Of a DNA stretch of 64,000 nucleotides, positions 21,195 to 21,610 are shown in pieces. A model generated the notes under the pieces. That model saw only the letters and a program-made list of their open reading frames with translations. It searched no databases and had not been told where the DNA came from. The stretch's first letter is position 1; each line of letters opens with the position of its first letter. The DNA is from Sphyrna mokarran (Eukaryota), in contig JAGIQG010000017.1 of the NCBI GenBank assembly GCA_024679065.1, forward strand, positions 32,798,001 through 32,862,000, in the 5' to 3' direction. A program made the position numbers and the translations under genes.

Positions 21195-21610
21195 ATAAAA
21201 TCATCAGAAAATGCTGGAAAATCTCAGCAGCTTTGACAGCATTTGTGGAGAGAGAGTAGACACAGAAAGAAATCTCACAATACTAAGTTAAAGTCCAACA
21301 GGTTTACTTAGTGGTAAATGTCACTAGCTTTCGGAACACTGTTCCTTCGTCGGATGACTCATCTCCAAAAGATAGTGGTGTTTACTACCAAATAAACCTG
21401 TTGGACTTTACCCTGCTGTTGTGAGACTTCTTGACTCATTTGACGAAGGAACAGCAGTCTGAACACTAGTGGCATTTACTACCAAATAAACCTGTTGGAC
21501 AGGTGTTGTCAGACTTCTCACTGTGTTACCCCAGTCCAACGCTGGCATCTCCACATCAAGAGAGAGTAGAACCAACCTTTCAAGTTTGCATGATCCTTTG
21601 TCAAAGCAGA
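21195..21610 (-). mobile_element. Short Penelope terminal-repeat insertion (family 1) with 15-bp TSD, containing a nested family-2 insert
   Basis: TGCTGTAACCTACGC at 21180-21194 and 21611-21625; body CAGAAAATGCTGGAAAATCTCAGCAG...GAGAGAG is the reverse-complement homologue of 3880-3930. Confidence 0.8.
21261..21558 (+). mobile_element. Penelope family-2 terminal-repeat insert: one inverted plus two tandem units, with hammerhead motifs
   Basis: 12-bp TSD AGAGAGAGTAGA (21249-21260 and 21559-21570); repeated ACCAAATAAACCTGTTGGAC; same 3' end as the GIY-YIG-bearing copy at 44618-45166. Confidence 0.85.

Follow-up and report, generated by a model that had tools for sequence, protein, structure and literature searches.

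Three short end-pieces of a Penelope-like element within one TSD in the genome of Sphyrna mokarran

Results and Discussion

Architecture of the insert and its target

The locus lies in a 64-kb window, by which we mean the whole 64,000-nucleotide stretch of Sphyrna mokarran DNA analysed here. A 298-bp insert is bounded by two 12-bp copies of AGAGAGAGTAGA, direct repeats of 100% identity at positions 21249-21260 and 21559-21570. This TSD is AG-rich, yet it is credible because the flanks, once one copy is removed, join as a single continuous older repeat. That repeat (21195-21610, minus strand) is a 106-nt member of a second family which carries a decayed hammerhead-like motif, is split by the insert and has its own 15-bp direct repeats at 21180-21194 and 21611-21625. 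The second family is represented by 29 related pieces in the 930 kb of DNA examined, and in its copies a pyrimidine tract and then CACAG come after the hammerhead-like motif. In about 6 of these 29 pieces, all from loci selected on the first family, ends of the first family adjoin the second near its CT-rich tract, as they do in the window (L249, L080, L177, L214, L135 and L016). The CT-rich tract may be a target preference.

The insert contains one unit on the minus strand (U1) and two on the plus strand (U2 and U3), in agreement with the earlier note, which had described this arrangement, its size and its TSD. U1 (21261-21361) is an inverted stub that runs from the ACTCA region to an inner end site and has no full tail (positions 355-458 of the family profile described below); it differs from the subfamily majority at 13 of 99 positions. 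It includes a minimal type I hammerhead (21321-21357, minus strand) with a U4C change at 21352 and a predicted cut between 21325 and 21324. U1 and U2 share a near-palindromic head-to-head join, GATGACTCATC, at 21353-21363, within which a non-consensus G at 21356 directly precedes the ACTCA of U2. Delimited by alignment, U2 (21357-21432, plus strand) is a direct stub that terminates at the inner site (GAGACTTCTT), with a 17-nt gap that deletes the hammerhead core and 5 differences in 69 aligned positions. Between U2 and U3 stands a second non-consensus G (21433, plus strand), so that both plus units are preceded by one; 25 of the 29 closest copies have C at this position, and the G is a candidate copy of an RNA cap. 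U3 (21434-21558, plus strand; profile 353-489) is a direct stub that extends from ACTCA to an outer end site, with a decayed hammerhead, a 7-nt gap near 21500 and 13 differences in 125. Its last 39 nt (21520-21558, plus strand) form what we call the tail, the segment between the two end sites, which in a related subfamily is directly followed by the ATG of the ORF. The TAGTGG words at 21373 and 21467 are 94 nt apart, as had been reported; the starts of U2 and U3 are 77 nt apart, and their distance is 94 only if the 17-nt gap is counted.

The locus as a whole forms a long inverted repeat. All three units fall within profile positions 353-489, a non-coding part of the element whose ORF stops at 139, which bears out the earlier statement that the insert has no coding sequence; nine small ORFs across the region are regarded as chance. 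The insert is what an old insertion has left after decay, namely three short pieces from the end of a Penelope-like element (PLE) of very high copy number. Its units differ by 7-13% from the subfamily majority. Contigs from three sequencing runs with flanks about 8-10% different start in the tail (21530-21534) and cross the right TSD into the flank; since they overlap the insert side by only 25-29 letters, below our threshold of 31, they only hint at the old age of the insertion. Three further loci of the same family occur in the window, at 45037-45166, 45844-46031 and 56788-56867, the last two being head-to-head pairs. A neighbouring repeat at 21930-22200 presumably resembles a tRNA-derived SINE.

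The parent element

The family is abundant in the genome: the 16-mer marker AATAAACCTGTTGGAC has 35,159 exact matches in 2.77 Gb, and a control has none. A reverse transcriptase (RT) fragment located upstream of one close copy led to a locus, L175, with an 859-aa frame that matches RVT_1 (E 7.5e-9) and is followed by a related pLTR. The same frame yields a GIY-YIG match just below the cut-off (E 3e-4, score 21.4 against 22.6) and, by eye, a CxxxC-x-CxxC-like cysteine linker between RT and endonuclease (EN). A Zn-finger-like linker in this place is a feature named for EN+ PLEs (PMC8557442, in the sections drawn on here, as for all sources cited below). We apply the label Neptune type provisionally, from the linker and not from a tree. 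A Pfam search of three broken fragments gave a match in none of them, and a PDB search with the 859-aa frame returned no match. The genome harbors a young subfamily with long open frames (L175 and L311) and a diverged pLTR; the pLTR of this young autonomous subfamily is about 71% identical to U3.

A profile was built from 9 long copies, its seeds lying on one contig arm. It places the ORF stop at 139, a TATA-like word at 321-328, ACTCA at 353 (about 30 nt downstream of the TATA-like word), the hammerhead at 359-387 and the tail at 446-485. Among 20 stretches upstream of RT matches, 6 hold a piece of the ORF N-terminus, and in 3 of these 6, from the related young subfamily, the tail is directly followed by ATG; in L311 the pLTR, tail and ORF are consecutive. 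Because the ATG adjoins the tail in that subfamily, the unit would be a 5' UTR as well as a terminal repeat. Judged from sequence, the units are the non-coding end of a PLE with RT and GIY-YIG, and ACTCA is the predicted start of a capped RNA.

In the family majority the antisense strand of ACTCACCTG reads CAG/GTGAGT, which we take to be a perfect splice-donor consensus. The thousands of ACTCACCTG-type copies could serve as cryptic splice donors in introns.

The hammerhead motif

At the family level the minimal type I hammerhead is real. The majority of the 29 close copies has the full core, CUGANGA as well as GAAA, and the intact 35-nt pattern has 542 exact matches in the genome. We further sampled 155 anchors in loci that had not been selected on the ribozyme and used the 84 with a gap-free layout, excluding 71 that were truncated, gapped or too decayed. 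Position 17 of a hammerhead avoids G (the NUH rule), and in these 84 copies it is T in 30, C in 29, A in 21 and G in only 4. The intact majority core and this avoidance of G are why we regard the motif as genuine. On this point, and in assigning the terminal units to a Penelope-like element, the earlier note is supported. A fully intact core with a fully paired stem II was found in only 8 of the 84 copies. One stem II pair varies between G-C and A-U (p=0.018, the 84 copies being mutually related), and covariation in a 9-row alignment was not above that of shuffled alignments.

The locus itself is another matter, as none of its three units has an intact core. The minus-strand motif of U1 reads as the earlier note gave it, including the U-to-C change in the core, at a position where T is found in 26 of the 29 closest copies; its stems I and II fold at -10.5 kcal/mol (z -2.2). 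The plus units had also been described as hammerhead-bearing, which does not hold if a working motif is meant. U2 has AAAA in place of GAAA, and its 17 missing nt include the remainder of CUGANGA together with the 5' strand of stem II. U3 shows C3U, A15.1C, a broken stem II and GAAC for GAAA, with a fold of -1.9 kcal/mol. Consequently, the sole near-intact motif lies on the strand opposite to the tandem pair. The scan with hammerhead models suggested in the earlier note came out negative, no Rfam hammerhead model matching the locus at E<=10. Rfam miRNA matches at the locus were rejected as hairpin artefacts, with scores far below gathering scores.

End-point hotspots and the extra G

End points were collected from 97 loci around 100 marker sites, chosen on the 16-mer alone in the first 10.3 Mb of one contig (C1). 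Of 142 matches covering the marker, 120 have their 3' end at one of two sites, profile 445-459 (64 matches) and 485-494 (56 matches). At the 5' side there are 127 truncated ends, of which 56 fall at profile 345-364, near ACTCA, and the 20-nt bins on either side contain 11 each; this hotspot spans about 20 nt, as read from the profile with 9 seeds on one contig arm. Only 7 of the 127 lie near the ribozyme cut site, and a derivation of the copies from ribozyme-cut RNA was rejected in the absence of an end peak there. The 29 stubs that run from the start to the inner end have a median length of 98, a value that includes a few bases of overshoot at alignment ends. A head-to-head layout was found in 35 of the 97 loci, and 30 of 36 joins of this kind connect an inner end to an outer one, which is also the combination in this insert. 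Solo stubs with a TSD numbered 4 of 25, against 2 of 200 in a control.

The base before ACTCA was counted in 5,981 genome-wide matches, filtered to deplete full-length pLTRs. A G stands there in 976 matches and an A or T in 761, while about 250 G would be expected from a flank of 40% GC. Among 30 G cases that were checked, the base is templated by an inverted partner in 4, the partner follows after other letters in 13 and no partner scores above threshold in 13. None of the 30 continues as upstream pLTR, for which reason the idea that G is a subfamily base was rejected. One position further out, G counts are 2 of 18 versus 13 of 30 (p=0.026, counted by eye). A clean G between TSD and ACTCA was seen in only two loci (L222 and L267), and in L253 and L255 the G belongs to the TSD.

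Taken together, the pile-up at ACTCA, the G and the two end sites, the outer of which lies before the ATG, make the unit look like a cDNA that would extend from an internal RT start to the cap and be re-primed within one insertion. A clean cluster of tandems near 134 nt, which this predicts, is absent among the 8 head-to-tail pairs with periods of 110-140. In three other loci (L036, L039 and L302) tandem pLTR pieces repeat short non-element DNA lying alongside, which suggests template jumps onto flanking DNA.

Origin of the tandem and inverted units

The earlier note proposed a non-autonomous retrozyme, with a 94-nt monomer spreading through self-cleaved circular RNA by rolling-circle copying. 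Uniqueness of the junction between U2 and U3 had been named in advance as grounds for giving up this idea, and the junction has one match in 2.77 Gb, namely this locus; a relaxed search gave 4 matches with four different joins. Exact head-to-tail marker pairs number 4 at periods of 79-109 and 8 at 110-140, all with different joins and many with foreign filler, mostly so among the 8, whereas head-to-head pairs, at gaps of 70-100, number 773 among the 35,159 marker copies. Neither the exact nor the relaxed genome searches found long arrays or a monomer junction shared by independent loci. Two consecutive complete ribozymes, the operational rule of a recent preprint (bioRxiv 10.64898/2026.07.22.740005), are absent from the locus, U2 and U3 both lacking an intact core, and the ends in the family do not accumulate at the cut site. 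U3 moreover carries a 39-nt tail outside the monomer, which rules out a 94-nt circle as its template. The hammerhead of the family is real, periods near 94 recur and a pLTR origin of retrozymes has been proposed (same preprint); even so, we regard the retrozyme as highly improbable. The recurrence of periods of about 94 nt at independent loci is in keeping with a linear RNA on which copies start and end at fixed points.

Exact-match pair searches miss decayed arrays, and one such array, L034, escaped the head-to-tail search. At L034:1416-1830 four units follow each other with periods of 93, 94 and 94 and a near-identical junction three times, which a relaxed search found at no other locus. An inverted stub stands in front, a G precedes the first ACTCA, the flanks are TSD-like and the ribozymes are decayed. 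It is the best local candidate for a nascent retrozyme-like array. A one-off circle of the 5' stub, of RNA or cDNA, read round more than once within one insertion, would account for the three near-identical junctions of L034, but repeated re-priming yields the same picture. As the window locus has a single junction and its last unit requires a linear tail, we hold such a circle to be very unlikely here, if slightly less so than a spreading retrozyme.

A more serious rival starts from an ordinary inverted pair, U1 and one plus unit, in which the stretch TGACTCA...ACTTCT was soon duplicated in DNA by slippage or repair. In its favor, TGACTCAT stands at the beginning of both U2 and U3 and is also what the inversion join reads, there is a one-base T microhomology and the locus is a long inverted repeat. 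Read literally, the GACTCA that marks the inversion join would make the pair a local duplication, an argument we keep only as a rival because the G is common family-wide. Against a duplication, both of its end points coincide with the start and inner-end hotspots of the family itself, and these zones recur at other tandem loci, where the junctions differ. U2 and U3 share none of their departures from the majority in 62 columns and their CpG sites have decayed in opposite directions. As no derived change is shared, the repeat dates from about the same time as the insertion, and a duplication must have followed the latter almost at once. We consider this explanation unlikely, though well ahead of either circle.

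We therefore favor, as the probable origin of the insert, three Neptune-type end-pieces likely joined in a single insertion within one TSD, the 94-nt period likely being the distance from the predicted transcription start to the inner RT start. U3 would arise first, from RT that starts at the outer site beside the ATG and proceeds for 134 nt as far as the capped 5' end, where a single base added opposite the cap would leave the G. Re-priming at the inner site and renewed copying of 94 nt would yield U2, again with a G. U1 would go back to a third cDNA, which also began at the inner site but was primed by the other strand of the target, and it would meet U2 head-to-head at the palindrome. Later, U2 would have lost its 17 nt and all units decayed. 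The order of these steps is conjectural, and neither ribozyme cleavage nor a circle would be necessary. Elements of the scheme have precedents: internal RT initiation at two tail-defining sites on an uncleaved RNA template with extension of both strands (PMC11167929), an untemplated cap-derived G in L1 and SVA (PMC3287187), and tandem, inverted and tail layouts in PLE insertions (PMC8557442, PMC3846280).

More tentatively, with chances we would put a little short of even, the commonest product of the family may be a strong-stop-like cDNA, for which RT would start internally, where the 5' UTR ends, on a sense RNA that is capped and uncleaved, and continue up to the cap. Integration and re-priming of such stubs would produce inverted ends and occasional ribozyme tandems of about 94 nt and up to four units, the raw material of retrozymes.

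Taken alone, the locus is the fossil of an element whose type is known, and its value is that of a record of mechanism. The origin of Penelope tandem and inverted ends has been called undefined (PMC8557442), and sense versus antisense RNA as PLE template has been left open (PMC3846280). Thousands of junctions with a start pile-up and an extra G make the template question testable; the strong-stop-like reading, if true, would settle it for this clade, and the start-site junctions hint at how short ribozyme tandems first arise. A literature search, with most subscription papers outside its scope, found neither a capped-start or strong-stop reading of PLEs nor a report of a shark PLE hammerhead; supplements of the preprint may list chondrichthyan families.

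Comparison with known systems

Compared with the metazoan non-LTR retrozymes (PMC7229834; bioRxiv 10.64898/2026.07.22.740005), the locus has similar non-coding, head-to-tail, pLTR-derived units, type I hammerheads, low GC and a long TSD. It differs from them in having no shared monomer junction, no consecutive complete ribozymes and no array family. Nor is 94 nt a record, the computed retrozyme range in the preprint being 51-972 bp; expressed circles measure about 170-400 nt (PMC7229834; same preprint).

The hammerhead is close to the minimal hammerheads of metazoan PLEs (Cervera and De la Pena 2014, PMC4209133), with which it shares a short stem I, the extra base between A9 and G10.1, the G10.1-C11.1 pair and a palindromic AGCU that replaces helix III. 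In both, the motifs are mostly single and found in truncated copies. Unlike those described in that paper, the copies in this genome have decayed, with 8 of 84 intact.

EN+ PLEs of the Neptune/Nematis type (PMC8557442, PMC3846280) share with our family the 5'-truncated partial tandem with an inverted 5' copy, the one-sided tail of 30-40 nt, the TSD and the palindrome at the inverted join. They also share TATA and initiator-like words in the pLTR, and an RT, CxxC linker and GIY-YIG. Unlike their insertions, the one described here has no ORF, and its units span 94-134 nt from the predicted start to the end sites. The start pile-up with an extra G seen here was not found for EN+ PLEs in the sections of these two papers drawn on.

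The mechanism that we favor is nearest to that of Poseidon PAc of Anolis (Frangieh 2024, PMC11167929). In PAc, as in our model, two internal RT starts bracket the tail downstream of the hammerhead, an uncleaved RNA is the template and both target strands are extended. The ORF of PAc begins within the hammerhead and contains the RT sites, whereas here the ATG follows the tail, so that the stub would be a 5' UTR.
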